Source: a bacterium
GTDB taxonomy: Bacteria; UBP4; UBA4092; JAOAEQ01
Assembly: GCA_026416715.1 (NCBI GenBank)
Contig: JAOAEQ010000005.1
Span: forward strand, 1,190-65,189
Direction of reading: 5' to 3'
DNA: 64,000 nucleotides
This document shows positions 14,176-45,886 of this stretch, piece after piece. The notes under the pieces are model-generated. The model made no database searches and had not been told where the DNA came from. It saw only the letters and a list, made by a program, of their open reading frames with translations. Position numbers and translations under genes: made by a program. Each line of letters begins with the position of its first letter. The first letter of the stretch is position 1.

Positions 14176-15015
14176 TTACTGAGCACGATGGATAAGAAGG
14201 TCGGCTAATAAACCGAGGATAGCGATTTCAACTCCTGTAACCACACAAGTGATCGTTGATACATCCATCAGTGTTCCTAGAATGAATTTGCTATATATCC
14301 CAATAAATAATCCAAGTAGGATTAACATGAGACTTACTGGTAAGAATATGCGGATTGGATTAAAATAAACAATAGTCCGCAGAATTAAAATAAAAAAATC
14401 AGCGGTATGTTTAATCGGCTTAATTTTTGATTGCCCAATTCGAGTCCGGTATTCTATTGGAACATATTTAACAAAATATCCATTGCAATGCAGCGCTAAG
14501 GTTAAAGTTGTGGTAAATGAAAATCCGTTTGGTAAGATGTGCCGGAATTGGTGAATTAAATCTTTTCGAAATACACGAAGTCCGGAGTTTAAATCTGGAA
14601 TTTGTGTCTCTGCAAGATAATTGGCTAGTTTCGATAGCGTCCATTTCGCTAATCTCCGTGAAGCGGGAATAGTTTTCCGTGCGCCAACAACCATGTCATA
14701 CTCGTTTCGTTCAGAAATTAACTGTGGGATAGCCTCTACAGGATATGTCCCATCAGCGTCAAGAATGAGTATCCAATCATATTTCGCTTGATTTACTCCG
14801 GTTTTAATTGCTGCGCCATATCCTCGATTTTCCGGATGAATGATAAGTTTAACCGGTTTATTTTTCACTATTTCAGCGGTTCCATCGGTTGACCCGTCAT
14901 CAATTACAATGAGTTCATATTCTTTTCCAGTTAATATGGAATTAATTTCATCAATAACTTTACCGATACTAGCCGATTCATTAAATGCTGGGATTATTAT
15001 GGTTAACGCTTCCAT
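14176..15015 (-). CDS. GT2 polyprenyl-phosphate sugar synthase (DPM1/ArnC/GtrB-like)
   Basis: IIIPAFNE...IVIDDGSTDGT...LDADGTYP motifs of GT2 family with C-terminal transmembrane helices. Confidence 0.8.
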   Translation of the reverse strand: MEALTIIIPAFNESASIGKVIDEINSILTGKEYELIVIDDGSTDGTAEIVKNKPVKLIIHPENRGYGAAIKTGVNQAKYDWILILDADGTYPVEAIPQLISERNEYDMVVGARKTIPASRRLAKWTLSKLANYLAETQIPDLNSGLRVFRKDLIHQFRHILPNGFSFTTTLTLALHCNGYFVKYVPIEYRTRIGQSKIKPIKHTADFFILILRTIVYFNPIRIFLPVSLMLILLGLFIGIYSKFILGTLMDVSTITCVVTGVEIAILGLLADLLIHRAQ

Positions 15016-22800: not shown

Positions 22801-24252
22801 TTATTTAAATACCGTTTGTTTAAGTTTAGCTAATTTGTGGATACAAACTAATAACCCAGCAAAAAACCAAAAATGGAGGTTATTTGGGAAACTTTCGAAA
22901 GTAACCCCGCCTAAAGCCGAAATGATTAGAATAATTATGCAGGCAAGCAGACCAAGAACGATTGTTTTTTCGAAAGATTCAGGGAGTATTCTGAATAGTC
23001 TAAACCCGAAACGCAATATACTTCCTAGTATCCAGATGAATAAAAATAAGCCGAACATTCCCATTTCAATTAGGAGTAATAAATAATAATTATGAGTTAA
23101 TGTTGCATCAGGTATTTCATAAAGGACTCCGACTGGACCAACCATACCTAACCCAATACCTAATAAATTCGAATCGAGCATCCGCTGGAATAATACCGTC
23201 CATTCATCTAATCGTTCCCGAATCGTGATATGGCTGGGGTCAAACGTTGTAATTCGACTGAATAATGCGGTCAACGCTAATGGTTGAATGAAATAAGCTA
23301 TAACGACTGCAATGCAAGCTATCAGCAGAAATCTAATAATAATTCTCGATTTCCCGGCGAGAAATCCGATAACCAGCGATGCGATAAATACTCCAAGCCA
23401 GGCACGTCGCGAGAAAGTAAACACTAAATTTATCCCACCAAAAAATAACGTTAATCCGAGCAAATACCGCCAACTTTTCACTAATTTATTGCGATAAACG
23501 AGCGCACCAAGACAGAATCCAACTAACATTGCCATAAATATCGCATACGCATTCGCACTATGTTCATCACCAAACACGGTTAATCGGCCAACAATATGTT
23601 CCGGCATGACCTCAAACCAAGTTCCTAATCCAATTTTAGTCGTAAAAATGCGGTATAGCCCCCACAGTGAAAAAAGCAACCCGCTCCACAGGAAAAGTTC
23701 AATCGCTTTTTGGATATCCTGCGCTCTGGTTAAAATTGCTATAGTTAAGAGAAAGACAAGAATAAATTCTACAGTAGACCGTAGCCCCCAAAAACCCGCT
23801 TTTACCTCTGGACTAACAAAAGTATAGATAAATGCTAATCCAATAAAACATAGTATCGGAATGTAAACTGGATAAAGTTCATTTTCCTTAATCGGTAAAC
23901 GATATCGTTTATGCACCAGATGTAAACCCCATACTCCTAGTAAACTTAATAACCAGATATCTTTCGGAACGCGAAGTAACGTTTTGGGTATTTCAACTCC
24001 GGTAAGTTGGGCAACGAGTTTAGTTTCACTTACTACGATTAAAAAAGGAGCTGATGCAATTAATAGTATTAACCCCGATTCTACATGGTAATACAGGAAT
24101 ATCAGCCAAATAAATGTAACTAGCACCCATACTACTATCCAAGGTTCCAAGTTGACACAAATTGCTGATATAAGTAGCAGTAGAAGTAACCAAAGATAAC
24201 CTTGCCGGAAATAGGACGATTTTGAAACCGCGATTTCTTTGACGTTGAGCAT
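22801..24252 (-). CDS. O-antigen ligase/polymerase family membrane protein (Wzy-like)
   Basis: 483 aa polytopic membrane protein placed between glycosyltransferases. Confidence 0.6.
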   Translation of the reverse strand: MLNVKEIAVSKSSYFRQGYLWLLLLLLISAICVNLEPWIVVWVLVTFIWLIFLYYHVESGLILLIASAPFLIVVSETKLVAQLTGVEIPKTLLRVPKDIWLLSLLGVWGLHLVHKRYRLPIKENELYPVYIPILCFIGLAFIYTFVSPEVKAGFWGLRSTVEFILVFLLTIAILTRAQDIQKAIELFLWSGLLFSLWGLYRIFTTKIGLGTWFEVMPEHIVGRLTVFGDEHSANAYAIFMAMLVGFCLGALVYRNKLVKSWRYLLGLTLFFGGINLVFTFSRRAWLGVFIASLVIGFLAGKSRIIIRFLLIACIAVVIAYFIQPLALTALFSRITTFDPSHITIRERLDEWTVLFQRMLDSNLLGIGLGMVGPVGVLYEIPDATLTHNYYLLLLIEMGMFGLFLFIWILGSILRFGFRLFRILPESFEKTIVLGLLACIIILIISALGGVTFESFPNNLHFWFFAGLLVCIHKLAKLKQTVFK

Positions 24253-25708: not shown

Positions 25709-27022
25709 CTATTTCCTGTTAAATATAATGTTTTTCATATAATGAAAATCAATAAATAACGGGCGAATGTTGAATTGTTTGTTTAAAATAATCCAATAGA
25801 TCAATAAAACTGAAGCAGAAGTAATCAACGAAGTTATTGCTGCACCGAAAACGCCAAGTTTAGGAATTAATGCTAGATTAACCAGGATATTTATCACTGC
25901 GCCAAACCAGGTTAATTGCGCATTCCATTCTGGTTTTCCAATTCCATTAAATACACTTGCAGCAATCCGATAAAATGGATGCAGCAAACCCCAGAACGCA
26001 AACACTCGCACCAAACTTGCTGCCTCTTGATATTTTTCGCCATAAAAAACTCGGAGAATAAATTCAGGGAAAAAAAATAAAATTAATGTTACTGGGATAG
26101 CTAACAGAAATAAGAACCCTGATGCGGTTTCGTATATTTTCCGAATACGTTCCCGACTGATTTCTCCTAAAGACAAATCAATCTTCGCACTTTCTGGAAA
26201 TACAATTGCATTCATTGAATCATTTATCACGGTCGCAAAATTCGTGAATAAATGCGCGATATTATATACCGCGATGCTCATCGGACTAACCATAAAATAT
26301 GCCAGCATAAATAAATCTATTTTCGAATAGATTTGGACTCCGGCGCTATTGATAAACGAATAAGATGCAAACCGAGTAATACGTTTAAGCCATTCTATTT
26401 GTAGCTGATTTTTGAATTTTAGATACTCCCGTGCAAACCATAGTCCGGGAATTGAACTGATAAAATAACTTAATGCAACAATCCAGATAACTTCAATCCC
26501 GTTGGATAAATGCCCGGTAAGTTTGAAAAGAGTCAGAAAAAAAACAAAGTTACCTAAAACAAAACAATCAGTCCAAAAAACCTGTTTCAACTTTTGTTTT
26601 GCAATCAGAAGTTGGCGAATGAAATAATTGCATAATACTGCAAAAAGGATTAACGGTACCCAACGTAATAGAATCGCTAATCGTGGAACATGGAATATTG
26701 TCGCGATACCTTCGGAAAAGAAAAACAAGATACTTGATGAAAATATCGTCAGAATGAATTTAAGCAATAATGAATGGAAGTTTACGAGTGGAAGCTCAGA
26801 ATCATCTTTCTCTGCAGCGTATTTGATTAGCGCCTGCCCAATGGATAAATCACCAAACAAAATTAAAAAGACACGAATACTATCGCACAGAACCAGTACT
26901 CCATATTCTTCTTTTGGAATACTGCGTACTACCGTAATAACATAAACGAAAGAAAACAATGCTATGATGATACTATCTAAAATCGCATAAACACTACGAT
27001 GTATATATACATTAATTTTCAT
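25709..27022 (-). CDS. Wzx-like oligosaccharide flippase (MOP superfamily)
   Basis: 437 aa, about 12 TM segments, polysaccharide-biosynthesis-protein-like organisation. Confidence 0.65.
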   Translation of the reverse strand: MKINVYIHRSVYAILDSIIIALFSFVYVITVVRSIPKEEYGVLVLCDSIRVFLILFGDLSIGQALIKYAAEKDDSELPLVNFHSLLLKFILTIFSSSILFFFSEGIATIFHVPRLAILLRWVPLILFAVLCNYFIRQLLIAKQKLKQVFWTDCFVLGNFVFFLTLFKLTGHLSNGIEVIWIVALSYFISSIPGLWFAREYLKFKNQLQIEWLKRITRFASYSFINSAGVQIYSKIDLFMLAYFMVSPMSIAVYNIAHLFTNFATVINDSMNAIVFPESAKIDLSLGEISRERIRKIYETASGFLFLLAIPVTLILFFFPEFILRVFYGEKYQEAASLVRVFAFWGLLHPFYRIAASVFNGIGKPEWNAQLTWFGAVINILVNLALIPKLGVFGAAITSLITSASVLLIYWIILNKQFNIRPLFIDFHYMKNIIFNRK

Positions 27023-27935: not shown

Positions 27936-29042
27936 TTACTCTATTTTAAGAATTACAGATAAAAATTTATAAATATCCACTGTTTTTTCAATCGGTAATA
28001 AATGTTGGGCGATGATATTATTATAAAATAATACTCCTTTTTGGCTTTCTAATTCCGGATGATATCCATGCATCGCTTTCGGAATCTTCTTACCATAAAA
28101 ACTTGGGGAAAATACTAACCCTTCATTCAATAAGAAAAGAATATTACCAAATTTAGATGAGGTAAGTTTATATTGTAGTCGTTCTTCTGGAGTAATTATT
28201 CTGCCATACACTTGCTGATTGAGAAATTTTTCTAGTTCGGAACGTAGATTATTATCAAAAGTCCAAATACGCAGCATAGTTGAATCCTGTATATAGAAAT
28301 AACGCTCTGGACTAGGATTCCCAAACTCCGTTTCCATAATTAATTTAACTGATCCGGTAACATTCGTCATGCCATGATCGCTTATGACAACTATCTTTCC
28401 ATCTGGATATAACTTCTGATATTTTCCTATTAACGTGGAAATATTCGTATTCAACTCTTCTATTGCCTTTACATAATCTGACGTCCCAACACCTACCCGA
28501 TGCGTTATTCCATCTAAATCTACTAACCCGATAAATAACCGCGGATGAGATTCCATTGCGGTTAGTCCTGCGAGTGTCATTTTAGCATCGCGGTTAGGAT
28601 GTTTAAAATCAGGATATTTAATAACATATAAATCCGGATTCTGAATAAATAACGATGGAATATGATAGTTAGGCGAAAATATATCCGGCTGGTTCTGTAA
28701 ATAAGGTAAATAGTGGAATGGAATATTCCAAATGGGACCGAAAATTTTGTTTCCCAGACGATGTAAAACTCGGTCGATTACATAACATTTGCCCATTGGT
28801 GAAATGACCTTGAACAAAAACCGATATTTCCAGAACGGCGAATTAGTTCCGACATAAGTCCATTCACTGAAATATCCGAGTTCGTCTGGCATTTTCCCGG
28901 TAAAAAGTTCTGCCTGAATATTGATGCTATATCCAAACCCGGGAGTTAATGGAAGCTGAGTCACAAATTGCTTCGCAACTGCCATTTGTAAAGCATATTG
29001 ATACGGGAGACTATCAATGAATATAATGAGAAAATTAGCCAT
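27936..29042 (-). CDS. Alkaline-phosphatase-superfamily protein (nucleotide pyrophosphatase/phosphodiesterase-like)
   Basis: N-terminal IIFIDSLPY and VVISDHGMT metal-ligand motifs typical of the AP/NPP superfamily; no TM segments. Confidence 0.55.
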   Translation of the reverse strand: MANFLIIFIDSLPYQYALQMAVAKQFVTQLPLTPGFGYSINIQAELFTGKMPDELGYFSEWTYVGTNSPFWKYRFLFKVISPMGKCYVIDRVLHRLGNKIFGPIWNIPFHYLPYLQNQPDIFSPNYHIPSLFIQNPDLYVIKYPDFKHPNRDAKMTLAGLTAMESHPRLFIGLVDLDGITHRVGVGTSDYVKAIEELNTNISTLIGKYQKLYPDGKIVVISDHGMTNVTGSVKLIMETEFGNPSPERYFYIQDSTMLRIWTFDNNLRSELEKFLNQQVYGRIITPEERLQYKLTSSKFGNILFLLNEGLVFSPSFYGKKIPKAMHGYHPELESQKGVLFYNNIIAQHLLPIEKTVDIYKFLSVILKIE

Positions 29043-29188
29043 TGATGATTATTTAATGTCAAATGTTATAGCTCAAACCTTCATTGCTCTATAACCAACA
29101 AAAACTGGGAATAGATGTCGTCTGACATTGAACATTAAGTTTTGAACGTTTATTGGTGATTGAAACTTTGACATTTAAATTTGGTATA

Positions 29189-30556
29189 TTATCTTTCTAT
29201 GTGACCTTCCAAAATATAAGATAAATAATCTTCCTTTTGCCCGATGCTCTGATATAAATCCATTAAGAACCGACCAAATATTTTTCGTAACCAAATCCAT
29301 CGTTCTCCAATTGGGATAGATAAATCCATAAACTCTACCGGTAATCGGCGTAATGTTAATTGTGATACAAGCTGAGATGCTTTTCTTAAGTGGAATTCAG
29401 CTTCAGGTAAATCATTGATTATTGCTATCGCTCGGAAAGCAAAATGTAAATGATATAGGCAACTGATCATTTTCCCGATTTTCCCTTGCCAATACCAATT
29501 CCACCATCTATAAATTGTCCTTTGGTTGAAATGTTTTGCTACTAATGTTAATTCGTATACTTTTCGTCTGAATTTGTATTCATTAAACAACCGCGTTTGG
29601 TATTTTTCAAGGATGTTCGGTAGTTCAGTATCTGGAACTTTAATATTATTAACAGCTAACAGATGTTTACCTGCCTGGATAAAATACGCTAACGTTTGCT
29701 GGTATAACTGTTCTGTTGACTCAGGAAAAATGAACTTGAACTTTCCATCCAAACATTGATTTAGAAAATCTGGAAATGAAGAATTAAAATAACGCCGAAG
29801 TTGTAAATCTGGATAATGCTCACGAATATAATCGACTCGTTCTCTAAATGAAGACAATAAAACTTTTTCCCATGGTAGGAGATAAGTGGTTAAATCCAAT
29901 GAATTCCGACATAAAACGAAATTGAATAATTCTTGGTTATTATTTCCTTCCGTTCTTCCGTTTTTAGGTTTTGTAATCAGCCAGGATCGTGGTACATATA
30001 ACGCTATTGCCCATAATCTCCATAAAATCACTTCCGCTAATTCCCGGTAATCCAGATTATCGCAATTAATTTCCGGAATTTCTGAACGTATATCGGTTCC
30101 GAAGATAGTTTTCCCGATCTTTTTTGCTTCATAATGACGGATTAATGGCGGTAGTTGCTGTACCTGGCGTAATGAAATATAACTGCAATCAATATGAAAT
30201 AACGGGGAATTTTTATTCCATTTTTTTTCTAATTGCGCGAGTTGAACAAATAATCGCTTCCGTTCAGTGTTGCTAGGTTTTCTTTTCGATACGGCTAATA
30301 ATTCAATATCACTCCATAATGAAATCTGCCCATCAGGTTCAATCCGATAACTAAATTCACCTCGAGCGGTACTACCCAGCAGTAAAATAGATAGAATATC
30401 AGATACACTTTTCTCTGTAATAACTTGAATTTCAGATAAGTAGTTGTGAATAAGGGTAGGATAACCAAATTCATTGCAGAGCGATAGCAAACTCGATTGT
30501 TCCATATGAATGAATAAAATTACCGCTGATTTCTGAATATCTTTTAGTGGATTCAA
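29189..30556 (-). CDS. Hypothetical protein with Pol-beta-like nucleotidyltransferase motif
   Basis: 455 aa; LLLGSTARGE...SDIELL resembles an hG[GS]...DhEh nucleotidyltransferase core but with atypical spacing; the rest is helical and unrecognised. Confidence 0.4.
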   Translation of the reverse strand: MNPLKDIQKSAVILFIHMEQSSLLSLCNEFGYPTLIHNYLSEIQVITEKSVSDILSILLLGSTARGEFSYRIEPDGQISLWSDIELLAVSKRKPSNTERKRLFVQLAQLEKKWNKNSPLFHIDCSYISLRQVQQLPPLIRHYEAKKIGKTIFGTDIRSEIPEINCDNLDYRELAEVILWRLWAIALYVPRSWLITKPKNGRTEGNNNQELFNFVLCRNSLDLTTYLLPWEKVLLSSFRERVDYIREHYPDLQLRRYFNSSFPDFLNQCLDGKFKFIFPESTEQLYQQTLAYFIQAGKHLLAVNNIKVPDTELPNILEKYQTRLFNEYKFRRKVYELTLVAKHFNQRTIYRWWNWYWQGKIGKMISCLYHLHFAFRAIAIINDLPEAEFHLRKASQLVSQLTLRRLPVEFMDLSIPIGERWIWLRKIFGRFLMDLYQSIGQKEDYLSYILEGHIER

Positions 30557-30711
30557 AATAAGTGATAGGAACCATAAGCGAATTAAAAATATTTTGGGTT
30601 ACATATTAAGAATTCACCGTTGTACGATAGGTTAACCCAATATTAGATTCTGATTTATCTTAACGTTATAGTTTATCCAAAACTGCATTTTAAGTAATCA
30701 TCCAACTTCTG

Positions 30712-31683
30712 TTAGCGTATAATGGCAAATCCACCAACTTTAAACAATTCTAACCATAATGGTTCTAATCCACCCACTTCAAATTCTAGGGTAACATAAT
30801 TGTTCCGGGTAACGACCTTACTTTTCCAGTCAATTTTCTGGGCGATAAACTTCCTCCGAAATGCTTCTCCAATAAACTCGGCATCATCAATAACATCCTT
30901 AATCCTATTTATTTTGGCAACGTCAAACAGCATCGTTCCACGCAATCTATCCGAATTAATAATATCCATCTCAATCACAATACTACGAATATCTTCTGCA
31001 GAAAGTAACAAACTCATTTTCCATTTTTTCTCACGCAAAAGCAGGAATTTAGCAAAATGTTGGTGATTATTATTGCAAAAAATTATTATATCTCGTCGAG
31101 GTATTGAGCTGGCTCCTCCAGCTACAATATCCGGTACCGTGATTATATGTTTGATTTTACGCAAATAAACCTGAATGGTCGTTTGTATTGCCGCTAGGTT
31201 ATTCCCGATAATTAATTGATGGTCTAAAATTGCGTATCCAATCTTTTTCGTCCATGAAGTATCCGTCCCGTAAATAATCTGAAAACCGGATTCCGTATAG
31301 GTAGTCCAATTCGATTTTGCACCTAATTCATTACTCAATTTATTTTTTATAAACTTTATAAACTCAGTATTATTGTTAACTGCTTGCCGATAAGTTAATA
31401 TTACTATATATTGGAGATTATTAGGATCAGAATCAGGATAAAGTGCTGCTATACCGGAAACCGGTGTGAGTTTGGCTACAATCTCGCGTATCGAACTTTT
31501 TCTCGGGATAGTAACCCAGTTGTCAAATAGCCAGGATATTCCTGGGTCATTTGATTTGACATCTACTTTTAAATAAACAATTGCATTTGATGCCACTAGT
31601 ACTTGTTCTTCTGCATTTATCAGTCCAAAATATGAAAATAATATCACCACACTTACTAAAATTAATGTGTAATTCGGTTGCAT
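30712..31683 (-). CDS. Hypothetical secreted or membrane-anchored protein
   Basis: Start taken at internal Met (MQPNYTLILVSVVILFSYFGLINA signal-like segment); no recognisable domain. Confidence 0.45.
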   Translation of the reverse strand: MQPNYTLILVSVVILFSYFGLINAEEQVLVASNAIVYLKVDVKSNDPGISWLFDNWVTIPRKSSIREIVAKLTPVSGIAALYPDSDPNNLQYIVILTYRQAVNNNTEFIKFIKNKLSNELGAKSNWTTYTESGFQIIYGTDTSWTKKIGYAILDHQLIIGNNLAAIQTTIQVYLRKIKHIITVPDIVAGGASSIPRRDIIIFCNNNHQHFAKFLLLREKKWKMSLLLSAEDIRSIVIEMDIINSDRLRGTMLFDVAKINRIKDVIDDAEFIGEAFRRKFIAQKIDWKSKVVTRNNYVTLEFEVGGLEPLWLELFKVGGFAIIR

Positions 31684-31873
31684 ATTTGTTTTTTTATAAT
31701 AACACTTTTTAAAACATAAATATTCTATCATATCAATATCATATCACTACATCATTCTCTATCTTAGCACTTTTCTTTTCAAACAGTATTAGATTCTGTC
31801 CTTAAAATACTTTTCCTTAAAAAATTAATGTAAGTAGATAACAAAATAAATTTATTATCAGTTATTCTTTCGG

Positions 31874-34639
31874 TCATTGAAAATCTATCCAACCCAAATC
31901 AATCGCTTCTCCAAACGTACCCTCCCCATCTCGATAGAAACCAAAAATTACTTTATAAGAAAGTGGTTCTGCAATAATATCGTTATGAATAATAACATAC
32001 TTCCCTACTGGCCAATGAGTGGTAACTGGATAAGGATAAAAATCCCAATTCTGCCCTTTCATCTGCCTATTAGATTCTGGCAATAATCCCACATCTTCTT
32101 CTTTTACTCTGCCGTGAATATAAACCAACCAATCCTTTTCTAACGGTTGATTTACTTTAAACAAGAAATACAGTCGATATTTTTTAGGTTCTAATTTTTT
32201 TAAATACACGTCAATAAAAGTTATTGCTGGATGGATAACTTTTTCTTTTCCACTCTGATGTTTAATACATAATGTTTCGAAGCTAGATGCTATTTCCCTG
32301 TATAGTTCGGGGATAATATTTTCGTAAAAAGCATAGGTCTGTAAAAATTCACCTATTTCAAAAATATTTTTACTGATTGATAACTGTTTCCACCTTTTAT
32401 ACAGTAAACCATCAAGATTATCCGTTGCAAAATCAATCCACCCTAATGGAATCGGTTTCCCGAAGGTTTTTCCTCCTTTATAAAAGCCGATAACTATATT
32501 ATATGGAATTGGTTCTGCTGAAATCACTCTCGATACAATGATGCTTTCATTTTTCCGCCAAGTTGATGTAGGTGGATCTGGCCAAAAATCCCAATTTTGT
32601 CCTTTCCACGATTGTACTTTTTCTGGTAACCTTGAAACATCTTCTTCTGCCACTTTACCGTGAACATATATTGCCCAATCGGTATCCATAAGTTCTTCCG
32701 TTTTAAATAATAAATATAGTTTATATTGTTTTGGATCAATCTTTTTATAATAATATCCCAAAAAGGATACCGCTGAATTCACTGCGAATCCCTGATGTTT
32801 AGTATATTCGGATATTATAGCCCTATATTTTTTATCTATTTCTTGAAATAGTTCCGGAAACGCTCTCTGATTAGATTGATATAATGAACGAAATTCATAG
32901 ATTTCAAATGGATTATTACTTGCTAAGATACGTTGCTGAGTTTTATCGACCTCATTTTTCGAAATCGAATACAGATACCAACTATACCCGTCTATTGGTT
33001 GTGCACCGGCATCGATACTCTGGTACGGCGTTTTTTTACCCTGCAATAATGCAGCAAGTTTACCACTCCAAGTTAAACATGGATATTCCTCGATTCTCGT
33101 AAACGTTGTTTCGAGGGTTAGTCCGAAAAGATTCGGTTCTCGAGAAACATAATAAATCTTTTTAACTCCAATATAATTACTAGGCCAATCTATTAAAACT
33201 GGATTATTGCGTTTATAGTAATACGGCAAAAATTCGTTAAAATAAAGCATGATTTTCTGTTCATATTCTTCTACTTGTTTAACTACCACTACTGCACCAG
33301 TAGAAAGTTTCTGGTCTAATTCAGTTAGCAATCGCTTTTCAATAGTTCTTGCATTATATTGCACAAGAAATTGATAAAGGAAATTGTGATAATTAACCAC
33401 GAGAAAGAAAAATAAAAACAAAACGACACCTCCAACTATGACCATGCCGAATCTTCTATTATTTTTAGCATGAGCCCAGATGGGTATAGTAGAAAAAGCT
33501 AATATTATTGCCAGCAATGGTACCACCGGATACCAATATCGTAATGCTTGCTCCCACGAGGTACAAAGAATGCAATATAATCCTATAAACTCAATAATAA
33601 GTATTAGGAAAAAAGTATTCGATTTCGCAATCGTTTGCGTTTTTCCATAAATTCGTCCCCAAATATATATTCCTTTTCGCAGATATCCCAGCCGCACCAA
33701 TCCTAATAATAGAAAGGCAATACTGAGAATAATCTGGGTATCAAGCAATAAGATACTTCGAACCAACCACCATCCGTTACTTACCAAAAGTTTTAAAGTT
33801 ATCGTTGGGACACCGTATCCACCTCCTTGAAAGGCTAGTTTGACTCGGAAAAAAGTGTATAGCAATACTAAAATCAACGGTAGCAGGCGGAATAAATATT
33901 TTTTCGAACTATGGTTTGATTCTAAGATGATGAAAATTAATAAAAATATAAACAGTAAAATGATATTTATCTCTTTCACAATTGATAAGCCAAAATAGCT
34001 AATGTAAATGAGAAAAAGATTCAACCGCGATGTAGAACTAAATTCGCCATTGGACTGGACAATGAGTATCGCTATTGCATAGTTAATGATGGCTAAAAAT
34101 AAACCGGTATGTAATTCCACCGGAGCTAGTCTTGCTTCGGGGTTATTGGGAAAGAAAAAGAATATGAAACTAAATGTTAGAACCGGAATATTGAATGATT
34201 TAATTAGCCTAATGAAACAGCGATTGACATTATCTTTTCCCTGGTGTAATGATTGTTGCTCGTGATTGGTTTGTATGAATAAAGAAAGACATTTAATCCA
34301 GAAATAAAACGAAATAAGTTTTACTACCCAACGAAATGCATGATGTAAAACCGGATTTGGTCCAAACAAAAACCAGACAAAAAAGTTATAAATATAGAGA
34401 AACGGACGATATCGACCGGAACCCAAATTGATAAATGTATTGTTAACCCAAGCAGCGAATTCACTGGCATTTTCGGCCAACTTAACCACTTGCCAGTCAA
34501 TATAATCGTCAATAAGTCCAAACGGCGTTTTCAGTGAATAATATATTGCAGGAAGAAGGAGAACAAAAATAATTAGGTAGATTAACCAATTTAAGAAGTG
34601 CGTTTTCATACTCTTTCGATAATTTGAACTTTTGACCAT
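31874..34639 (-). CDS. Large polytopic membrane protein with tandemly duplicated C-terminal extracytoplasmic domain
   Basis: 921 aa; N-terminal about 420 aa with many TM helices; two about 160 aa repeats (FEIYEF...GWIDFATD and FEIGEF...GWIDFQ) sharing KGQNWDF and GWIDF motifs. Confidence 0.6.
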   Translation of the reverse strand: MVKSSNYRKSMKTHFLNWLIYLIIFVLLLPAIYYSLKTPFGLIDDYIDWQVVKLAENASEFAAWVNNTFINLGSGRYRPFLYIYNFFVWFLFGPNPVLHHAFRWVVKLISFYFWIKCLSLFIQTNHEQQSLHQGKDNVNRCFIRLIKSFNIPVLTFSFIFFFFPNNPEARLAPVELHTGLFLAIINYAIAILIVQSNGEFSSTSRLNLFLIYISYFGLSIVKEINIILLFIFLLIFIILESNHSSKKYLFRLLPLILVLLYTFFRVKLAFQGGGYGVPTITLKLLVSNGWWLVRSILLLDTQIILSIAFLLLGLVRLGYLRKGIYIWGRIYGKTQTIAKSNTFFLILIIEFIGLYCILCTSWEQALRYWYPVVPLLAIILAFSTIPIWAHAKNNRRFGMVIVGGVVLFLFFFLVVNYHNFLYQFLVQYNARTIEKRLLTELDQKLSTGAVVVVKQVEEYEQKIMLYFNEFLPYYYKRNNPVLIDWPSNYIGVKKIYYVSREPNLFGLTLETTFTRIEEYPCLTWSGKLAALLQGKKTPYQSIDAGAQPIDGYSWYLYSISKNEVDKTQQRILASNNPFEIYEFRSLYQSNQRAFPELFQEIDKKYRAIISEYTKHQGFAVNSAVSFLGYYYKKIDPKQYKLYLLFKTEELMDTDWAIYVHGKVAEEDVSRLPEKVQSWKGQNWDFWPDPPTSTWRKNESIIVSRVISAEPIPYNIVIGFYKGGKTFGKPIPLGWIDFATDNLDGLLYKRWKQLSISKNIFEIGEFLQTYAFYENIIPELYREIASSFETLCIKHQSGKEKVIHPAITFIDVYLKKLEPKKYRLYFLFKVNQPLEKDWLVYIHGRVKEEDVGLLPESNRQMKGQNWDFYPYPVTTHWPVGKYVIIHNDIIAEPLSYKVIFGFYRDGEGTFGEAIDLGWIDFQ

Positions 34640-34668: not shown

Positions 34669-35364
34669 TTATTTTTTCCGCGCACAAACTGCAATGGTGA
34701 CCATCCATCGTGCTAATCTCTTATCTAACTTCTTATCCAACCATCTTAATATGCCATTCAACCAAGGAATAACAGATGGGAATACATGAATGCCTTTGTA
34801 TTCAAGTATTTCTAAATTAAGATTCTCTAGAAAAATCCGAAATGCTTTATAATAATGGAGCCAATTTTCGTATCCTTTATGCCTTCTTACTCCAATTACA
34901 TTGGCTAAAACAACCGCAAAATACCAGAATGATTTATTGGGAACAGTGATACAAATAATCCCATTTTTTTAAGACACGAACCAGTTCCCGAGTAGCTTGT
35001 AGCGGGTTGGAAGTATGTTCGATAACATCAGAAGAAATAACATATCCAAATGCATTTTCCTTAAAAGGCATCGCGAGAATTGAACCAACCACACCGTGAG
35101 CCATTGAATTTTTTTCTTTTGTTATCTTAACGAGTCGTTCACCAATATCAATTGCAATTACTTTTCCGGATCTATCTATTATCGCTTTCGTAAACCACCC
35201 GGTACCGCAACCGGCATCGAGAATAAGTTTATTCTCTAATATTTGCGTACCTAAAAATCAGTAAAAATAACCTCAATTCTTCTCTGGGTATCATATCGGT
35301 TGCTTAGTGAATCAAATTTAATAGCTATTTCATTATAAAATTTCTCTTTATCATTACTTTTCAC
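34669..35364 (-). pseudogene. Class I SAM-dependent methyltransferase interrupted by two frameshifts in homopolymer runs
   Basis: No ORF of 60 aa or more in the track; manual minus-strand translation gives three consecutive frames with methyltransferase motifs (LILDAGCGTGWF, VIAIDI, RVLKK then GIICITVPN); frame breaks coincide with T7 (34964-34970) and A5 (35252-35256) on the plus strand; no in-frame ATG. Confidence 0.5.
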
Positions 35365-36277
35365 AATTTTTTTCTTTAATAATATATTGTGGTCTGCGTT
35401 TCGATTCAATAAATAGTTTCCCTAAATACTCACCAATTATTCCTAAGATGAGAAGTTGTATACTCCCGATAAACAAGACACTAACAATAAGTGACGCCCA
35501 ACCAGGAACAGTTTTATCAGTAAATATTGTTATACCTACCGCATATCCTCCATAAAGAATGCATAAAAATGCTAATATTAATCCTAAAAAGGTTGCTAAA
35601 TGCAATGGCCTAGTACTAAATGAAGTAATTCCGGTTATCGCAAGAAGAATCATATTTTTAAAGGAATATTTGGTCTTCCCGGAATATCTTTTTTGAGGAG
35701 TATATTCTAATGCATATTGGCGGAAACCAACCCAAGAAACTAACCCTCGAAGGAAAATAAAGGTCTCATTCAGTTCTCGTAATATATCAATCACCTTTCT
35801 ATCTAATAATCGGAAATCTGCTGTTCCCGGAGTTATTTCAATTTCAGATATTTTATTCAGTAGTTTATAGAATAACCACGACGTTTTTCTCTTTAAAAAT
35901 GAAGCATCAGGGTATTCTTTCCGGACAGTATACACGATATCGTATCCTTCTTGCCATTTTTGAATCATCGCATCAACTAATTCTGGAGGATGTTGTAAAT
36001 CTGCATCAAGAGTGATTAAACAGTCTCCTGTCGAATAATCTAGCCCGGCTTTTAATGCTTTTTGTTGGCCAAAATTTCGCGAAAACGCAAGATATTTTAT
36101 CTTAGCTCCGTTTTCTACAAGTTCTTTAATTCGTTCTAACGTTGCATCCGTACTGCCGTCATCAACAAAAATAATTTCGTAATCCGAATACTTGTTTAAG
36201 ACCTCGGTTAGTTTCTTTACAAGAATCGGAATATTTTGTTCTTCATTATAACAGGGGATTACTACAGATATTTTCAT
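35354..36277 (-). CDS. GT2 polyprenyl-phosphate sugar synthase (GtrB/ArnC-like)
   Basis: VVIPCYNEE...IFVDDGSTD...LDADLQHPP GT2 motifs and C-terminal TM helices. Confidence 0.8.
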   Translation of the reverse strand: MKISVVIPCYNEEQNIPILVKKLTEVLNKYSDYEIIFVDDGSTDATLERIKELVENGAKIKYLAFSRNFGQQKALKAGLDYSTGDCLITLDADLQHPPELVDAMIQKWQEGYDIVYTVRKEYPDASFLKRKTSWLFYKLLNKISEIEITPGTADFRLLDRKVIDILRELNETFIFLRGLVSWVGFRQYALEYTPQKRYSGKTKYSFKNMILLAITGITSFSTRPLHLATFLGLILAFLCILYGGYAVGITIFTDKTVPGWASLIVSVLFIGSIQLLILGIIGEYLGKLFIESKRRPQYIIKEKNCEK

Positions 36278-36292
36278 GGTATCGTTTGGGTA

Positions 36293-37366
36293 TTAGTATA
36301 ATTGAATATCATCAATAAATATTTCGCAATTAACTCCGAGTGTATTGATTCCGATAACTTCCATAACCATATTTTTAGTACTCCATTGGTTTACTGGATT
36401 TAATGCGGTCGCAACTGCCTGTTGATAAAGATCATTTGCTTCAATTTTCGTCCATACTTTTGGTTGCAAACGGATAACAGCAGAAATTCCACCAGCTTCG
36501 GGTCCATATTTTGCTTGTGGTTCGGTTTTTTCATATCGAAAACTAACAACCAATTGCACCACTGATTCTTTGTTTGCATAAACGAACATTCTAACTCCAA
36601 CAGGATGGGTAAACGGCAGAAATACGACCTTCCCCCATAAATCTGGATTTTGTTCGTTATACTCAATCGAGAACAATTCGGATTTTTGACCCCGATATGA
36701 AAGAGTTGAACTTAATGTATGTGTTTTTATTACAGCAGTATTATTTTTTACCCAACGGTCAAAAACTGGTACACTTGTTCGCTCAAAATTTTCTACAGTT
36801 ACAAAAACATCGTGACCATTCCACAGGATATTTTTCCATGGTTTTAAAAAACTTTGATTAGCCATTTGTTTTAGTGTTGCCAAAGAAGCGATCGGATCGC
36901 ATGAGAGCATAGCTCCTAAACTATATGCATCTTCCGCTTCAACCCATTTCTTTTCAACAACATATACAGAAGCGATTGACCAACAGATAGTCTGCATTTC
37001 TTCACGGAAGCTTACCCAGTCAACATGAGTCGGTCGAATCTGCTGAAATCTATAAAACATATCGAGTGTTCGGGTATATTTTTTCTGCAAATAGTATAAT
37101 TTTCCTAAATAAAAATAAGCTTCTCGATCCTCTGGATTTATCTGAATAGCTTTTTCAAAGCTATAAATCGCAGGCAATATTTGTCCATTCTTAAATAACT
37201 CTTTTCCTCGAATAACCGCTACTTTGGGATCGGATAAAGCTATTTGTCGCATATATATTGAGCCCCAAAAAACTATTATGAGAAATCCAATAAGCAAAAA
37301 TAGCCAAATGATCAAAATTCCATTAAGGTTTAGTTTCTTCATATTGTTATTATTCGAAATAATCAT
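36293..37366 (-). CDS. Signal-anchored TPR protein with C-terminal domain shared with the C25-like peptidase at 39770-43228
   Basis: N-terminal hydrophobic segment, TPR-like repeats (REAYFYLGKLYYLQKKY), C-terminal about 170 aa (SYRGQKSEL...GINTLGVNCEIFIDDIQLY) homologous to the C-terminus of the 1152 aa protein; 4-bp overlap with the upstream gene. Confidence 0.55.
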   Translation of the reverse strand: MIISNNNNMKKLNLNGILIIWLFLLIGFLIIVFWGSIYMRQIALSDPKVAVIRGKELFKNGQILPAIYSFEKAIQINPEDREAYFYLGKLYYLQKKYTRTLDMFYRFQQIRPTHVDWVSFREEMQTICWSIASVYVVEKKWVEAEDAYSLGAMLSCDPIASLATLKQMANQSFLKPWKNILWNGHDVFVTVENFERTSVPVFDRWVKNNTAVIKTHTLSSTLSYRGQKSELFSIEYNEQNPDLWGKVVFLPFTHPVGVRMFVYANKESVVQLVVSFRYEKTEPQAKYGPEAGGISAVIRLQPKVWTKIEANDLYQQAVATALNPVNQWSTKNMVMEVIGINTLGVNCEIFIDDIQLY

Positions 37367-39769: not shown

Positions 39770-42700
39770 CTATTGGTTATTCTTTAAATATACTTTTAAT
39801 TTATTTGGTGGAAAAAACAATTCAATATCATCTACATATAATTGAACATTTCTCCCTCGAGTATTAATACCAAGATATACAATATGCATATTATCAATAT
39901 CCCAGCAATGAACATCATCAACTGATCTATAGGAAACAAATAAATCTGGATACACTCGAATATCACCACTAATATCCTTTTGTGATAATGCACGTTTTTT
40001 AGCAATTTGATAGAGGTCATTTATTTTTAATTCAATCCAATTGGAACTGATTGAATATGCTTGAGAACAAAACGCTTCGTTATGTTTTCCATTATAGGTA
40101 ACCGTAGCATTTAATTCTACCTTACTTTCGGTTGTTCCTCGTACAAAAAGACGAACTCCTATCGGACCGCGTAACGGTATGACAACCTCCTTACCCCAAT
40201 AATCTACCCAGCCTGGTATAGGATAGACTAAGTCAATCAGTTCACTTTTTTTACCCCGATGAGCATAGGTGGTTGAAAGGTAATGACCTATTATTTTTGA
40301 TTTATCACTCCAATGCCAATTTTTTAACTGCACCGCAGTAGCTGTTTCAAAAGTTTCGATTGGAACAGAGAGTTTCGCCAGGCGTTGAATCATTTTTAAA
40401 TCTCGGCATCCGTATTGAAATGCCTCGCTATATTTTAAGAGTGCATTTAGCATATCTTTTTGTTGATAAAATCTATCGCCGTCTTCCATGATTTGTTTTG
40501 CTTTTCTATCATTATCTATAGAAACTGATACAATAATATCCCGAATATCCTTATTGTTCATTGGCGTTACAGACCAAAGTAATCTTGGCAATAACGCTGG
40601 TAAACCAACAGTTTGCCCAACATTTATGGTATCTACAGTGGAAACTATTGTATATCCTATTGCATCCCACTTTGTTTTCTCATTCCATAAATAGCAATAA
40701 GCGATGAGTGTATCTTGTACGAAATGAGGTGGAATGGTCACTTTTGTGGTGAACTTTGCCTGATGATTTATGGTAATATTTTTTTGGATAACTAATTTCC
40801 CTTTTTCAGTCTTGATGATAACACTCCCTTTTGCAGGTCGTTTTCTATCCAGTGTTCCTGTAATTCGAATTTGAGGTTTAGATTTTATGGTCCGCGTTCC
40901 CTCTAATTGAACTATATCGTGAGGGAATGAAAGTTGTGTACCCGGATCACCTAACAAGACATAGGTAGCAGAAATATCAGGTAGTTTAATTTCTTGTTTC
41001 GCATTAATAAAAATATCACCAAGACGTCGAACATTCTTTTTAAACATCTGCGTGAACATTGCCCGGTCAAATGCATCGTTGGAAGAAACATAGCTTCGCC
41101 AAGTAGCGCTAATCACCGCTATCGCACCAGCGTTCGGTGTTTTTAGTAACACTTCACCAAGGCTATCATTATCAATATTATCAAAAACGCCGGTATAACA
41201 AGTTAAAGCGATTACTAATGGATATTTTCCATAGTTTTTCAATTGCAATATATTTTTTACTCCAAAAAAATCACGGTTATCTGGAACGACTTCTACTCCA
41301 TGTCGCTCTAAATCCATGCGACCGCTTTCCCAAACATATCCGCCGCCATGCCCAGTAAAATGAAGTATGATTCGTCCTTCGTTAATATTTTCAACAATAT
41401 CTTCCGTTCGATATTTATAATCCGGTGAACCACTTGATGGATATCTGCGATATACTTCATAATATGATGGCACATACGATTTCGCTAATTCTTCACTAAT
41501 CCCTTCAAACATCGGTTCTGGACTCGCTAAAAAGAATATCTTTTGACGCCATTGACCAAAGTTCGGCTTCTGTTCGTATTGAATAATTTTATTTACTACA
41601 TTAGTTACTTCTTCAATCGAATGCGCAGAAATCCTACCAATTGCCATTTCCGGTTTTGTTTCATCTTCGCCAACCGCGACAAACCAGTTATCTGACGCTG
41701 CTGCACCCATATATGTTGCCCAATAATACGTAGGAATATATAACCGAGCATGCGCTAGATTCATATTTCCGCGTAAATCAACACTAACATCACCGACGAG
41801 TAAAACATATCGCGGTCGTGGTTGCCAGTTGTAATAGGCATACTTGAGAAAAGACTTAATTGCTTTCGCATCAACTAATCCATAGTTGAAAGTATCATAA
41901 ACTTCTGATGTTTTGACACATTTTACCGTTAATCCGGTCTTCTTACGCCATGCTAACAACGGTTGAATTGCAGGATAAAAATCATCGTGCGTTATAACCA
42001 GATATTCCGCACCACTTGTATCTTGTGTTAAATCGTAATACATTATTTTTTCGATTTTAACCGGAGATTTTTTCTGCCTATCAGTTAGAGCAATGTAATG
42101 AACCGAACTCGATTCGTTATATAGTGTAAATTGTGCTTTAAAAGAACTTGAAGAATCAAGTGAACTTATTGTAATTGCAGGTATTATTACTTTCTTGTGA
42201 GTAATATCATATACATTAATATGTGGATTCGTAAACCCTCGAATTTCATGTTGGCTGGTAACTATATCATAGTTCATATTTATTGCGCTAAATACTAATT
42301 CATCGTTGGTTGCAATAAATGATTTCCAATAACTTAATTGAAATTGAACCATATAGATAACATCAATATCAGATGCTTGCCCAGTTGGATCACCAGATTT
42401 TCCAGGTAACGATATTTGCAATACATTATTCCCTGCCTTAAAAAAATTCATCGGAACCGTATTACATTGATAAGTATGTTTTGCCCGACCATACCACCGA
42501 GTTTCACCAACTCGATTTCCGTTTAATCCAATAACAACATAATGGTTTCCATACGAGACTCCTTGAAATACTATAGATAGTGAACAGAATAATGTTGGAG
42601 CTAAAATGGGATGGGTGATAGTAAACTGAAATGGATAATCATTCACCGGCGCAGCTATTTCCCGCCAATACCATAGATTTTGCTGCTCTTCTGTTTGTCC

Positions 42701-43228
42701 AGCAGCGGTTCGTGAATAAATAAAGGTTTCCTTACGAAATTGAGTATCTCTAAACATTGTTTTAGTCGAGAAAGAGATACTGGTTGCAAGCAAATGAGTT
42801 TGTTCTATATTCCAGCGTAATCCGGTTGATTTTCCCCAGGTTAAATAATAGACATTGGTATCAGAATATTCATCAGGTTCACCATCCGAATTACGATTTT
42901 TCTCGCCATAAAATTCAATATAATCATTGGTTCCATCTAAGGTATAGCGGGTTGTAAACTCAGCGCTACACAATATTGGGATTTCTCTCCCTCGATTCCA
43001 GAGCTGAATACTGTGAGGAGTAACCTGACTTAAATTACAACCGGCATCTGCTAAATCTCGATATCCGATTCGATAGATTCCATCTTCATCAATATAAATT
43101 TTACATAATTCGGTCGGACCCGACCCTACTCCATACAAACCCCAAGCTACTGAACACAGTAATAGCATTATTCCTATACCTACTAGTATTATTTTATTAG
43201 TTAAGCGCTCTCTTCTATATTGTTTCAT
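39770..43228 (-). CDS. Secreted C25-family (gingipain-like) cysteine peptidase homolog with C-terminal accessory domains
   Basis: 1152 aa; signal peptide; central region with candidate catalytic His (ILHFTGHGGG) and Cys (PLVIALTCYTG) in C25-like spacing; conserved YVLLVGD block; C-terminal about 180 aa shared with the TPR protein. Confidence 0.6.
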   Translation of the reverse strand: MKQYRRERLTNKIILVGIGIMLLLCSVAWGLYGVGSGPTELCKIYIDEDGIYRIGYRDLADAGCNLSQVTPHSIQLWNRGREIPILCSAEFTTRYTLDGTNDYIEFYGEKNRNSDGEPDEYSDTNVYYLTWGKSTGLRWNIEQTHLLATSISFSTKTMFRDTQFRKETFIYSRTAAGQTEEQQNLWYWREIAAPVNDYPFQFTITHPILAPTLFCSLSIVFQGVSYGNHYVVIGLNGNRVGETRWYGRAKHTYQCNTVPMNFFKAGNNVLQISLPGKSGDPTGQASDIDVIYMVQFQLSYWKSFIATNDELVFSAINMNYDIVTSQHEIRGFTNPHINVYDITHKKVIIPAITISSLDSSSSFKAQFTLYNESSSVHYIALTDRQKKSPVKIEKIMYYDLTQDTSGAEYLVITHDDFYPAIQPLLAWRKKTGLTVKCVKTSEVYDTFNYGLVDAKAIKSFLKYAYYNWQPRPRYVLLVGDVSVDLRGNMNLAHARLYIPTYYWATYMGAAASDNWFVAVGEDETKPEMAIGRISAHSIEEVTNVVNKIIQYEQKPNFGQWRQKIFFLASPEPMFEGISEELAKSYVPSYYEVYRRYPSSGSPDYKYRTEDIVENINEGRIILHFTGHGGGYVWESGRMDLERHGVEVVPDNRDFFGVKNILQLKNYGKYPLVIALTCYTGVFDNIDNDSLGEVLLKTPNAGAIAVISATWRSYVSSNDAFDRAMFTQMFKKNVRRLGDIFINAKQEIKLPDISATYVLLGDPGTQLSFPHDIVQLEGTRTIKSKPQIRITGTLDRKRPAKGSVIIKTEKGKLVIQKNITINHQAKFTTKVTIPPHFVQDTLIAYCYLWNEKTKWDAIGYTIVSTVDTINVGQTVGLPALLPRLLWSVTPMNNKDIRDIIVSVSIDNDRKAKQIMEDGDRFYQQKDMLNALLKYSEAFQYGCRDLKMIQRLAKLSVPIETFETATAVQLKNWHWSDKSKIIGHYLSTTYAHRGKKSELIDLVYPIPGWVDYWGKEVVIPLRGPIGVRLFVRGTTESKVELNATVTYNGKHNEAFCSQAYSISSNWIELKINDLYQIAKKRALSQKDISGDIRVYPDLFVSYRSVDDVHCWDIDNMHIVYLGINTRGRNVQLYVDDIELFFPPNKLKVYLKNNQ

Positions 43229-43240
43229 AAAATCGTCTTT

Positions 43241-45886
43241 CTACTCCTCTGTTTTTGGATCTGCCTCATTATAATGTGGTGTTACTGGAGCTACCAGTTC
43301 CCGAGCCGCAGCAAATCGTTTGCTATATTCATTCCATAAATTTATTGTTATGACTAACGGAATTGTTCGGTAAGCACCCGAGATAGCAAATTGTGCATTC
43401 CATTTCATTTGATTATTCGGTACCAAAAAGGAAGATATTAAATCACCTGATTGTGTCCGAAGCTGAATGATTCCTCGTGTAAACTCATTTGCCCACATTC
43501 CACTCCCATCGGTTACCGAAATTATTCCTAGGTCCGATGTGGTTGTTTCGATTCGTTCGATTTTACATGGTATCGGCTCTGGAATTGAGATTAGTAATCC
43601 AGGGTCACCTAATAAAGTATATAAATTATTTATCTCTTCGTTATTAACTTCTCGTTTAGCATCTAAAAATGCATCTCCGAGTCTTATTGGAGTAGTTGAT
43701 TGAAATATTCGACGTAAAAATGCTTTATCAAACATTTCAAAACTAGCTTGTGAAACTCGATAGGTACCTCCAACACAGGCAATTGCACCAGCTTTATCGA
43801 CTTTTAATAATGCTTCCCCTATTCCATCTGACCACATGGAATCAAATTCGTTTGCATAACAAGTCATCAAAATAACTAACGGATATTTCTTTTTATTTTG
43901 TAACTTGGTTATATGTCTTACACCGAAAAATCCGCGATCTTTATATCCGACAGTTTCGGGTTGTCCTTCTTCACCCGGTCGGCCAACATCCAAATGAAAC
44001 GGACTCGCATGACCAGTAAAATGAACCAACCAAGCTCCTTCATTAAACCATTCTATCACATTTTGCGGTGTAATAACTACCGATTCAATGGTTTCCGGCG
44101 TTGCATAGCGCGGTAAAGAATTCATCTGATTGGGTACAACATGTTTCATCAACTCAAGATTGATTTGGTCAGTCCATTCCCGTGGAGTTGCTAGAAATAA
44201 TACTGATTGACGCCAGGGACCAAATTCTGCTTGCAATTCATATTCCAAAATTTTATTGATTACCGCTTCTGTTTCTGATACCGAATGCGATGGGATTCGA
44301 CCTATTGCGAGTTCCGGTATCGAATCTTCTCCTTCTAAACAAACATACCAGTTATCACTAGCAGCATATCCCGCTGACGATGCAAAATAATGCATCGGGA
44401 TATATGTTCGCCCCTCAGCTAAATTTAAGCTTCCTTTCATATCCCAACTCGCATCCCCAACTAAGAGAACATATTTCAATCGGGGGGATTTCCAGTGGTG
44501 ATAAGCATAGAATAAAAAATCACGAATCGCTTGCGGATTGATTATTCCGAAATTAAATTCATTATAGATATCTTCAATATTAACGAGTTCAGCCAATAAC
44601 CCTTGTTGTTTTCGCAATTCGACTAAAGGCTTCAAAATTTCATTAAATTCTGATGGAGAAATAATGATATACTCTGCTGATATTTCAGGATTCCGCCATT
44701 TACCAATCCATTGTTTCTCTATTCGAAACGGGGTTTTAATCCGATTTTCAGTGCACGCGAAATAAGATTGCGGTAAATCGGCTTTTTCAGGTTCAAAATA
44801 GGCAAAATAAGTCGTTTGTTTTAACAAACCCAATTTGGGTATTACTATCGGTTCGTATTTAGTAGTATTAGAGAGATTATATATACAAATATTCGGGTAG
44901 GTAAAATTTTTTATTCGTAATCCGGAAGGAAAAGTATGCTGCAAATCTTTATCTGAGAGTTGAAATTGAATATCATTATTGGTTGCGACTAGCTGTTGCC
45001 AACAATCTATTTCAAACCAAGAAAGAAAAACTACATCGATTTCCGACGCTAAATGTTTCGGGTCGCCCTCTTTACCTGGCAACGATATTTCTAACGAATT
45101 ACTTCCGACCTTAAAATATCCTATTGGGACAGAATCATTGGTATAAAGGAACTCGGTTGCTCCATCCCATCGTATTTCACCGAGAGGATATCCATTTAAA
45201 GAAATCACGACATAGTGGTCTGGATTTTGCGGTAACCGCGATACACCAAAAAATTTTATACGAACGCTACACTGCTTTGTAGTATCGCTACTTAACGATG
45301 GAACCGTGAACAGTAATTTTTTCTTCGTTGGTGCAGCAAGTTCCATCCAAAACCATCGTTCAGCAGCATCAATATTTACCCAACGGGAATGGATGAATTT
45401 TTCTTCCCGATGAATCTTATTGAGATAATCTATTTCAGATTGTGCTTTGATAATGCCATTCCATTTTGACTGCGGTTTTCCAATTACCCTATACCACTGC
45501 GGAGATAAATTGGGATTTGTCCAATGTAAAAAGTAAACGTTCGTATCCGTATATTCATCATAGTAAGCTGTTGAACCACGATTGAATGTTCCATAGAATT
45601 CGAGATAATCATTTTTATTCCATTGACTTGATTTTGTGGTTCCCGCGGAAAAATATACTGGAATACATTTTCCTCTGTTAGTTAATCGAATTTTGGTTGG
45701 ATTGATTTCTAACGGATTAATTCCTGCATCAAGTAGATCGAAATAGGTTATTCGATACAGTCCATCTTCATCAACGAAAATTTTTACTACGTTTTCTAAA
45801 TTTGGCTGTTTCGCTGGTAGTCCTAAAATGAGACTAACTATAGATAAAAAAAACGACACAACAATTATACTGCGGTTTAATTTCAT
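43241..45886 (-). CDS. Secreted C25-family (gingipain-like) cysteine peptidase homolog, paralog of the upstream gene
   Basis: 881 aa; signal peptide; colinear with the 1152 aa paralog through the N-terminal domain and catalytic region (YVLLVGD, LVHFTGHASP, PLVILMTCYAN) but with a different, shorter C-terminus. Confidence 0.6.
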   Translation of the reverse strand: MKLNRSIIVVSFFLSIVSLILGLPAKQPNLENVVKIFVDEDGLYRITYFDLLDAGINPLEINPTKIRLTNRGKCIPVYFSAGTTKSSQWNKNDYLEFYGTFNRGSTAYYDEYTDTNVYFLHWTNPNLSPQWYRVIGKPQSKWNGIIKAQSEIDYLNKIHREEKFIHSRWVNIDAAERWFWMELAAPTKKKLLFTVPSLSSDTTKQCSVRIKFFGVSRLPQNPDHYVVISLNGYPLGEIRWDGATEFLYTNDSVPIGYFKVGSNSLEISLPGKEGDPKHLASEIDVVFLSWFEIDCWQQLVATNNDIQFQLSDKDLQHTFPSGLRIKNFTYPNICIYNLSNTTKYEPIVIPKLGLLKQTTYFAYFEPEKADLPQSYFACTENRIKTPFRIEKQWIGKWRNPEISAEYIIISPSEFNEILKPLVELRKQQGLLAELVNIEDIYNEFNFGIINPQAIRDFLFYAYHHWKSPRLKYVLLVGDASWDMKGSLNLAEGRTYIPMHYFASSAGYAASDNWYVCLEGEDSIPELAIGRIPSHSVSETEAVINKILEYELQAEFGPWRQSVLFLATPREWTDQINLELMKHVVPNQMNSLPRYATPETIESVVITPQNVIEWFNEGAWLVHFTGHASPFHLDVGRPGEEGQPETVGYKDRGFFGVRHITKLQNKKKYPLVILMTCYANEFDSMWSDGIGEALLKVDKAGAIACVGGTYRVSQASFEMFDKAFLRRIFQSTTPIRLGDAFLDAKREVNNEEINNLYTLLGDPGLLISIPEPIPCKIERIETTTSDLGIISVTDGSGMWANEFTRGIIQLRTQSGDLISSFLVPNNQMKWNAQFAISGAYRTIPLVITINLWNEYSKRFAAARELVAPVTPHYNEADPKTEE

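Follow-up and report, generated by a model that had tools for sequence, protein, structure and literature searches.

Gene, reading frame and domain layout

In this study, we analyzed a stretch of 64,000 nucleotides from contig JAOAEQ010000005.1 of the bacterial assembly GCA_026416715.1 (UBP4; UBA4092; JAOAEQ01), hereafter called the window, in which an open reading frame (ORF) for a membrane protein of 921 amino acids (aa) lies on the minus strand. The encoded protein has an internal tandem duplication, a predicted GT-C fold and conserved motifs, and its gene is paired with one for a GT2 glycosyltransferase. We believe that it is probably a GT-C-fold integral-membrane glycosyltransferase from a large unannotated sequence family, judged mainly from its predicted model, and that it modifies the polysaccharide of the surrounding Wzx/Wzy locus, the polysaccharide acceptor being the less certain part of this proposal.

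The features of the protein and its neighborhood are listed in Table 1. An earlier note on this DNA had described the ORF as a 921-aa membrane protein, and it is indeed present, with approximately 11 transmembrane (TM) helices. The product deposited at NCBI (MCX7918589.1, locus tag N3A72_03055, "hypothetical protein") has 911 aa and starts at M11; this alternative start lies at 34609, and the upstream GAAAGAG is the better Shine–Dalgarno-like site. The polytopic N-terminus of about 420 aa that had been described was found (about 11 TM helices up to aa 420–446), but the repeats do not follow it straight away as had been stated. An alpha/beta domain of about 120 aa, which is conserved in the whole family, sits between the membrane domain and the repeats.

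Table 1. Positions of the 921-aa protein, its domains and the neighboring polysaccharide genes in the window
Feature	Position	Strand	Remarks
Coding sequence of the 921-aa protein	31874..34639	(-)	ORF present in the window
Membrane domain, aa 1-446	33302..34639	(-)	~11 TM helices, predicted GT-C fold
TPFGLIDDY, aa 38-46	34502..34528	(-)	right after TM1, in the first extracytoplasmic loop; conservation scored in 93 representatives
Periplasmic alpha/beta domain, aa 447-564	32948..33301	(-)	whole family; conserved D543-x-G545 and W554
Repeat copy 1, aa 565-745	32405..32947	(-)	helical segment, then Ig-like beta-sandwich
Repeat copy 2, aa 746-921	31877..32404	(-)	same module, 41% identical to copy 1
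Class-I S-adenosylmethionine (SAM) methyltransferase gene	34675..35355	(-)	three frame segments; indels in a T5 run (~35255) and an A7 run (~34965)
GT2 polyprenyl-phosphate glycosyltransferase (GtrB/ArnC/PgfS type)	35354..36277	(-)	presumed donor synthase
Wzx (Wzx/MATE-like)	25709-27022	(-)
Wzy_C	22801-24252	(-)
Wzz	16578-17747	(-)
Bac_transf	17755-19140	(-)
GT4, epimerases/dehydratases		(-)	several genes

Internal duplication of the C-terminal region

When the protein was compared with itself by BLASTP, aa 569–737 were aligned with aa 751–920 at 41% identity over 170 aa, with one gap and an E-value of 7e-46. The Smith–Waterman score of one repeat against the other was 399, and that of shuffled sequences (n = 300) was 32 ± 5, which gives a z-score of about 70. 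The tandem duplication proposed in the earlier note, which had been staked on significant self-similarity, is thus borne out, and the FEI.EF, KGQNWDF and GWIDF blocks that were said to be common to both copies are invariant between them. The copies, given as about 160 aa at 32420–32908 and 31877–32362, were correctly located, but the full units are slightly longer (Table 1). Similarity had also been reported at the DNA level; it is real, the best blastn segment between the copies having 68% identity over 184 nt (E = 6.5e-11), but it is weak and partial, and the codon-aligned identity is 56%. We believe from this weak similarity that the duplication is old. A recent duplication was ruled out by the identity at third codon positions, which is only 45%.

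Predicted fold and conserved residues of the membrane domain

No model of Pfam or NCBIfam matched the 921-aa protein at E-values up to 0.1, and nothing below E = 0.5 was obtained when the PDB was searched by sequence, either with the protein (phmmer) or with a profile of 29 relatives. The Pfam models PMT and PMT_2 (PF02366, PF13231) did not match, so that by sequence the protein falls outside the ArnT/PMT_2/PMT (GT83/GT39) families. An AlphaFold2 model was built from an alignment of 30 sequences, in which aa 5–568 were confident (predicted local distance difference test, pLDDT, mostly 80–95 by block) and aa 569–921 were unreliable. The structures that best matched this model were Pmt4, Pmt2, ALG12, AftB, ArnT, PglB, ALG9 and STT3B, with scores of 19.7, 19.6, 17.5, 17.4, 16.2, 16.0, 15.9 and 15.7, respectively, and 349–389 aligned residues. 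The GT-C enzymes PIG-M, ALG3, AftA, AftD, DPY19, PimE and EmbA ranked lower. In an independent Foldseek search, ArnT (E = 5.4e-4, probability 1.0), STT3 and AftA ranked first. The protein thus has what marks the GT-C superfamily, a polytopic membrane domain within the range of 7–13 TM helices and a predicted GT-C fold.

The earlier note had suggested a divergent GT-C-type transferase and had named a transporter or other non-glycosyltransferase fold as the finding that would speak against it. The structural matches are GT-C enzymes and support the suggestion; "divergent" is apt because there was no sequence match in Pfam, NCBIfam or the PDB. A transporter reading of the N-terminal domain was ruled out by the fold, which matches ArnT, PMT and STT3 structures. 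By its predicted model, the protein is a recognizable GT-C enzyme whose family is unannotated, and it carries two copies of an accessory module that is new.

Conservation was scored in 93 family representatives, no two of which are more than 50% identical. The residues P164, N165, E223 and Q423 were conserved in 100% of them, K222, R367 and Y368 in 99%, R76 and D543 in 98%, T38, P39 and W554 in 97%, H99 and E175 in 96%, D44 and R103 in 95%, and D45 and H100 in 92%. D44 and D45 are candidate catalytic residues; they belong to the TPFxLIDDY motif, which provides conserved acidic residues in the first extracytoplasmic loop after TM1, as in GT-C enzymes. An Asp pair placed immediately behind TM1 marks the site that the catalytic base characteristically occupies in solved GT-C enzymes (PMC11127046). 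Hydropathy, the helices of the AlphaFold2 model and the distribution of Lys and Arg (positive-inside rule) suggest 11 TM helices, with the N-terminus inside and the C-terminus outside; in this topology, aa 79–92 would form a juxtamembrane helix in the long first loop (aa 37–95), and the last TM helix would exit to the periplasm. Given this arrangement, all conserved polar residues would lie at periplasmic helix ends or in periplasmic loops.

The GT2 partner and the methyltransferase spacer

GT2 enzymes of the GtrB/ArnC type make polyprenyl-phosphate sugars. The upstream gene had been called GtrB/ArnC-like in the earlier note, and its product agrees with this: it matches Pfam Glycos_transf_2 (1.6e-39), carries a DAD motif and two C-terminal TM helices, and is matched over its full length by the NCBIfam models PgfS (8e-89, the best) and ArnC (1.2e-49), both below their equivalog cut-offs. 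The GtrB-like undecaprenyl-phosphate-sugar synthase of Gtr-type systems is therefore represented in the window by this GT2.

A full-length ortholog of the GT2, 42–61% identical to that of the window, was found no more than about 2.5 kb from the family gene at 15 of 41 GTDB loci, which span Planctomycetota, Desulfobacterota, Spirochaetia, Binatia, Latescibacterota, Verrucomicrobiota, Kiritimatiellia and Chloroflexota; among metagenome relatives, it was nearby in four of seven. The family members adjacent to a GT2 mostly have the short form; their median length is 555 aa, and that of the rest is 717 aa.

The earlier note was mistaken in placing the gene directly downstream of the GT2 gene, as the 714-bp spacer holds a broken class-I SAM methyltransferase gene. 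Its breaks are single-base indels in homopolymer runs, and it may be either a pseudogene or a homopolymer assembly error. In a metagenome-assembled genome (MAG) of Pirellulales, an intact methyltransferase with 51% identity over 228 aa to the reconstructed gene of the window lies in the same spacer between GT2 and GT-C (L009:7245-7925). Therefore, judged from the gene order, GT2, methyltransferase and GT-C form a conserved cassette.

Distribution and forms of the family

Word-indexed homology searches returned only about 31 relatives, none of which had a Pfam domain, and a profile added none; when the alignment of the repeats was used as query, no sequence was recovered, the 921-aa protein included. 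An exhaustive HMMER search of 1.84 billion cluster representatives gave 2253 matches at E-values up to 1e-3 and 624 at E-values up to 1e-30, part of the 2253 covering only a C-terminal domain of about 120 aa. A Pfam match was also absent in the ten further family members examined. Among GTDB species genomes, only MAGs contain the family; they belong to at least eight bacterial phyla, and the hosts include Pirellulales, Desulfobacterota (with Electrothrix), Spirochaetia, Binatia, Latescibacterota, Entotheonella, Chloroflexota, Verrucomicrobiota, Kiritimatiellia and Gemmatimonadota. Plasmid and phage collections searched with tblastn gave no match. The short form of the family, about 550 aa, ends after the alpha/beta domain, and the long form of about 700 aa consists of the short form plus the C-terminal domain of about 120 aa. 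Several Dehalococcoidia MAGs have multiple family copies (L018/L030, L025/L038, L042/L043/L048), and two unannotated genes of 726 and 701 aa (L006:2610-6987, plus strand) that precede the relative P0012 may be tandem paralogs of the family.

The repeat module

Repeat 2 was modeled with confidence from a five-sequence alignment of the units (pLDDT 88.6, predicted template modeling score 0.82), as a helical segment (unit aa 1–49) that leads into a seven- to eight-stranded Ig-like beta-sandwich. Its structural matches were generic, comprising GH2 sandwich domains, the O-antigen/carbohydrate-binding domain of Wzt, FN3 domains and RhoGDI, and the predicted fold would suit a module that binds carbohydrate or acts as a spacer. 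By analogy with the carbohydrate-binding modules (CBMs) of other GT-C enzymes, the pair of helix-plus-beta-sandwich modules at the C-terminus is probably the part that binds the acceptor glycan.

When the units were searched by BLAST against the 175 collected proteins, the module was found in only two relatives. In P0077 (856 aa), which is 44% identical to the window protein over aa 8–737, a single copy precedes a C-terminal domain of another kind. P0130 (936 aa) carries two copies; their mutual identity is 65%, and their identity to the window copies is just 25–29%. These values suggest that the module was duplicated more than once or that the P0130 copies were homogenized. At the P0130 locus, a predicted lipoprotein of 410 aa with an LPAC lipobox (L003:836-2068, plus strand) consists of two module copies and adjoins a GT2 gene.

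The module may be a divergent form of the usual C-terminal domain of the family. Comparison of the two gave only P 0.01–0.08 with hhalign and an E-value of 0.06 with HMMER; BLAST of repeat 2 against one copy of that domain in P0062 gave an E-value of 8e-5, in the same register in five copies. This periplasmic domain of about 120 aa is without a Pfam model and has the consensus FDVYL..LIY..C..D..FFLH..P...DLP..R..GF.NLDF. It terminates the relatives of about 700 aa (tails of P0008–P0030) and also occurs in 3–11 tandem copies on proteins with Wzy_C or PMT/PMT_2 N-terminal membrane domains, including P0033, P0049, P0056, P0062 and P0081.

A bolder proposal, which we regard as rather unlikely, is that the helix-plus-Ig-like module is an undescribed glycan-binding or spacing unit that was duplicated repeatedly and independently and also exists as a free lipoprotein, and that the enzyme founds a CAZy-level GT-C family that is new and has so far turned up in uncultured bacteria only. 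If this were true, the copy number of the module would set the distance from the membrane, or the part of the polymer, at which the sugar is added.

Proposed function and comparison with known systems

We infer the activity, the lipid-linked donor and the acceptor of the 921-aa protein as follows. At the cytoplasmic face, the GT2 would use a nucleotide sugar to charge polyprenyl (undecaprenyl) phosphate with a sugar, which may be methylated by the adjacent methyltransferase. The lipid-linked sugar would then be flipped across the membrane and transferred in the periplasm by the 921-aa enzyme, which would use the acidic pair D44/D45 together with conserved basic and polar residues that form a ring on the periplasmic side of the membrane surface. 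The acceptor would most likely be the polysaccharide of the surrounding Wzx/Wzy/Wzz cluster, which would receive a side-branch or capping modification while the duplicated modules hold it.

Periplasmic glycosylation by three-component systems of the GtrA/GtrB/Gtr* type has been reviewed by Kelly et al. (PMC11127046). As in these systems, a GtrB-like GT2 is encoded in the window beside a polytopic GT-C-fold protein in a Wzx/Wzy polysaccharide locus; in contrast to them, a methyltransferase gene lies between the two, a GtrA-like flippase was not detected by a crude screen, and the GT-C protein does not resemble the known Gtr or ArnT/PMT_2 families in sequence. The GT136 enzyme ORF12 of Citrobacter youngae O1 has 11 TM helices, and its C-terminal CBM, which is beta-rich, binds the backbone of the O-polysaccharide (PMC11127046). 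The window protein resembles it in predicted architecture: in both, there are 11 TM helices, TM1 is followed by a small helical domain, and a beta-rich domain in the periplasm comes after the last helix. The order of residues is also alike when compared with the text of that paper only, D31/E34/Y35, H106 and R349-Y350 of ORF12 corresponding to D44/D45/Y46, H99/H100 and R367-Y368. The window protein differs from the published description of GT136 in partner genes and domain matches: ORF12 is partnered by a UbiA-type phosphoribose synthase (PPPRS) and a MATE/SMR flippase, whereas the window protein is partnered by a GT2; ORF12 has a CDD EpsG-family assignment (PMC11127046, supporting information (SI) Table S1), whereas the window protein has no Pfam match; and the latter carries two beta-sandwich modules where ORF12 has one, as well as an additional alpha/beta domain.

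ArnT (GT83) and PMT (GT39) enzymes share with the window protein the acidic motif after TM1 and, as donor synthase partner, an ArnC/GtrB-like enzyme, and they are among its best structural matches; sequence homology to them was not detected (Pfam, PDB profile search), and the periplasmic domains differ. Compared with the GT-C enzymes that bear CBMs (EmbA/B/C, AftD), the modules of the window protein are a distinct helix-plus-Ig-like unit that is tandemly duplicated.

Several observations weigh against a GT-C transferase of the locus polysaccharide. Similarity in sequence to any characterized GT-C enzyme was not found in the Pfam, NCBIfam and PDB searches, and the evidence for the fold depends on a predicted model from a 30-sequence alignment. 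Approximately 60% of the family loci are without an adjacent GT2, especially those of the Chloroflexota forms of about 700 aa. A crude hydropathy screen of the window found no ORF of 70–260 aa with at least three hydrophobic segments, and hence no small flippase like GtrA. The best structural matches are protein O-mannosyltransferases, which leaves room for a protein acceptor.

The last point leads to a protein O-glycosyltransferase of PMT- or Pgf-like type, which would move the polyprenyl-phosphate sugar made by the GT2 onto secreted or envelope proteins and not onto polysaccharide. We consider this unlikely, yet possible, because PMTs head the structural matches and PgfS is the best profile of the GT2. 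It is improbable that the enzyme uses an oligosaccharide linked to polyprenyl diphosphate, like an oligosaccharyltransferase, ligase or polymerase, instead of a single sugar linked to a monophosphate: the conserved, co-varying GtrB-type GT2 neighbor makes monophosphate donors, a Wzy_C protein is already present in the locus, and a WWDYG-type motif or STT3 Pfam signature was not seen. A non-catalytic scaffold or lipid-binding subunit of GT-C fold (PIG-U-like), with beta-sandwich modules serving only as envelope spacers, is hardly credible because near-invariant acidic, basic and polar residues concentrate at the periplasmic membrane face across phyla and the pairing with the donor-synthase gene is conserved.

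With the proposed GT-C reading, a family that has been without annotation in databases gains a functional assignment, for which the catalytic residues can be tested and the partner that makes the donor can be identified. The protein thereby represents a candidate new GT-C family and carries a candidate new periplasmic accessory module for glycan-modifying enzymes. Periplasmic glycosylation by a GT2 and a GT-C is already established, and the gain lies in annotation and enzyme discovery rather than in the concept.

The surrounding locus

The minus strand of the window is occupied from about 12 to 48 kb by a polysaccharide cluster (Table 1). Three genes lie immediately downstream of the GT-C gene (27936-31731, minus strand), of which those for 339 and 455 aa have no Pfam match and that for 368 aa encodes a Phosphodiest/alkaline-phosphatase-like protein; an intact Methyltransf_23 gene and then the Wzx gene follow. 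A second candidate GT-C gene at 15089-16561 (minus strand), with a weak PMT_2 match below the cut-off (8e-5), stands beside a GT2 gene at 14176-15015 (minus strand). On the other side of the cassette, a TPR protein (36293-37366, minus strand) and a Peptidase_C25 protein of 1152 aa (39770-43228, minus strand) have in common a C-terminal domain of about 170 aa without a Pfam match (32% identity, E = 2e-23), and a second C25 protein is encoded at 43241-45886.

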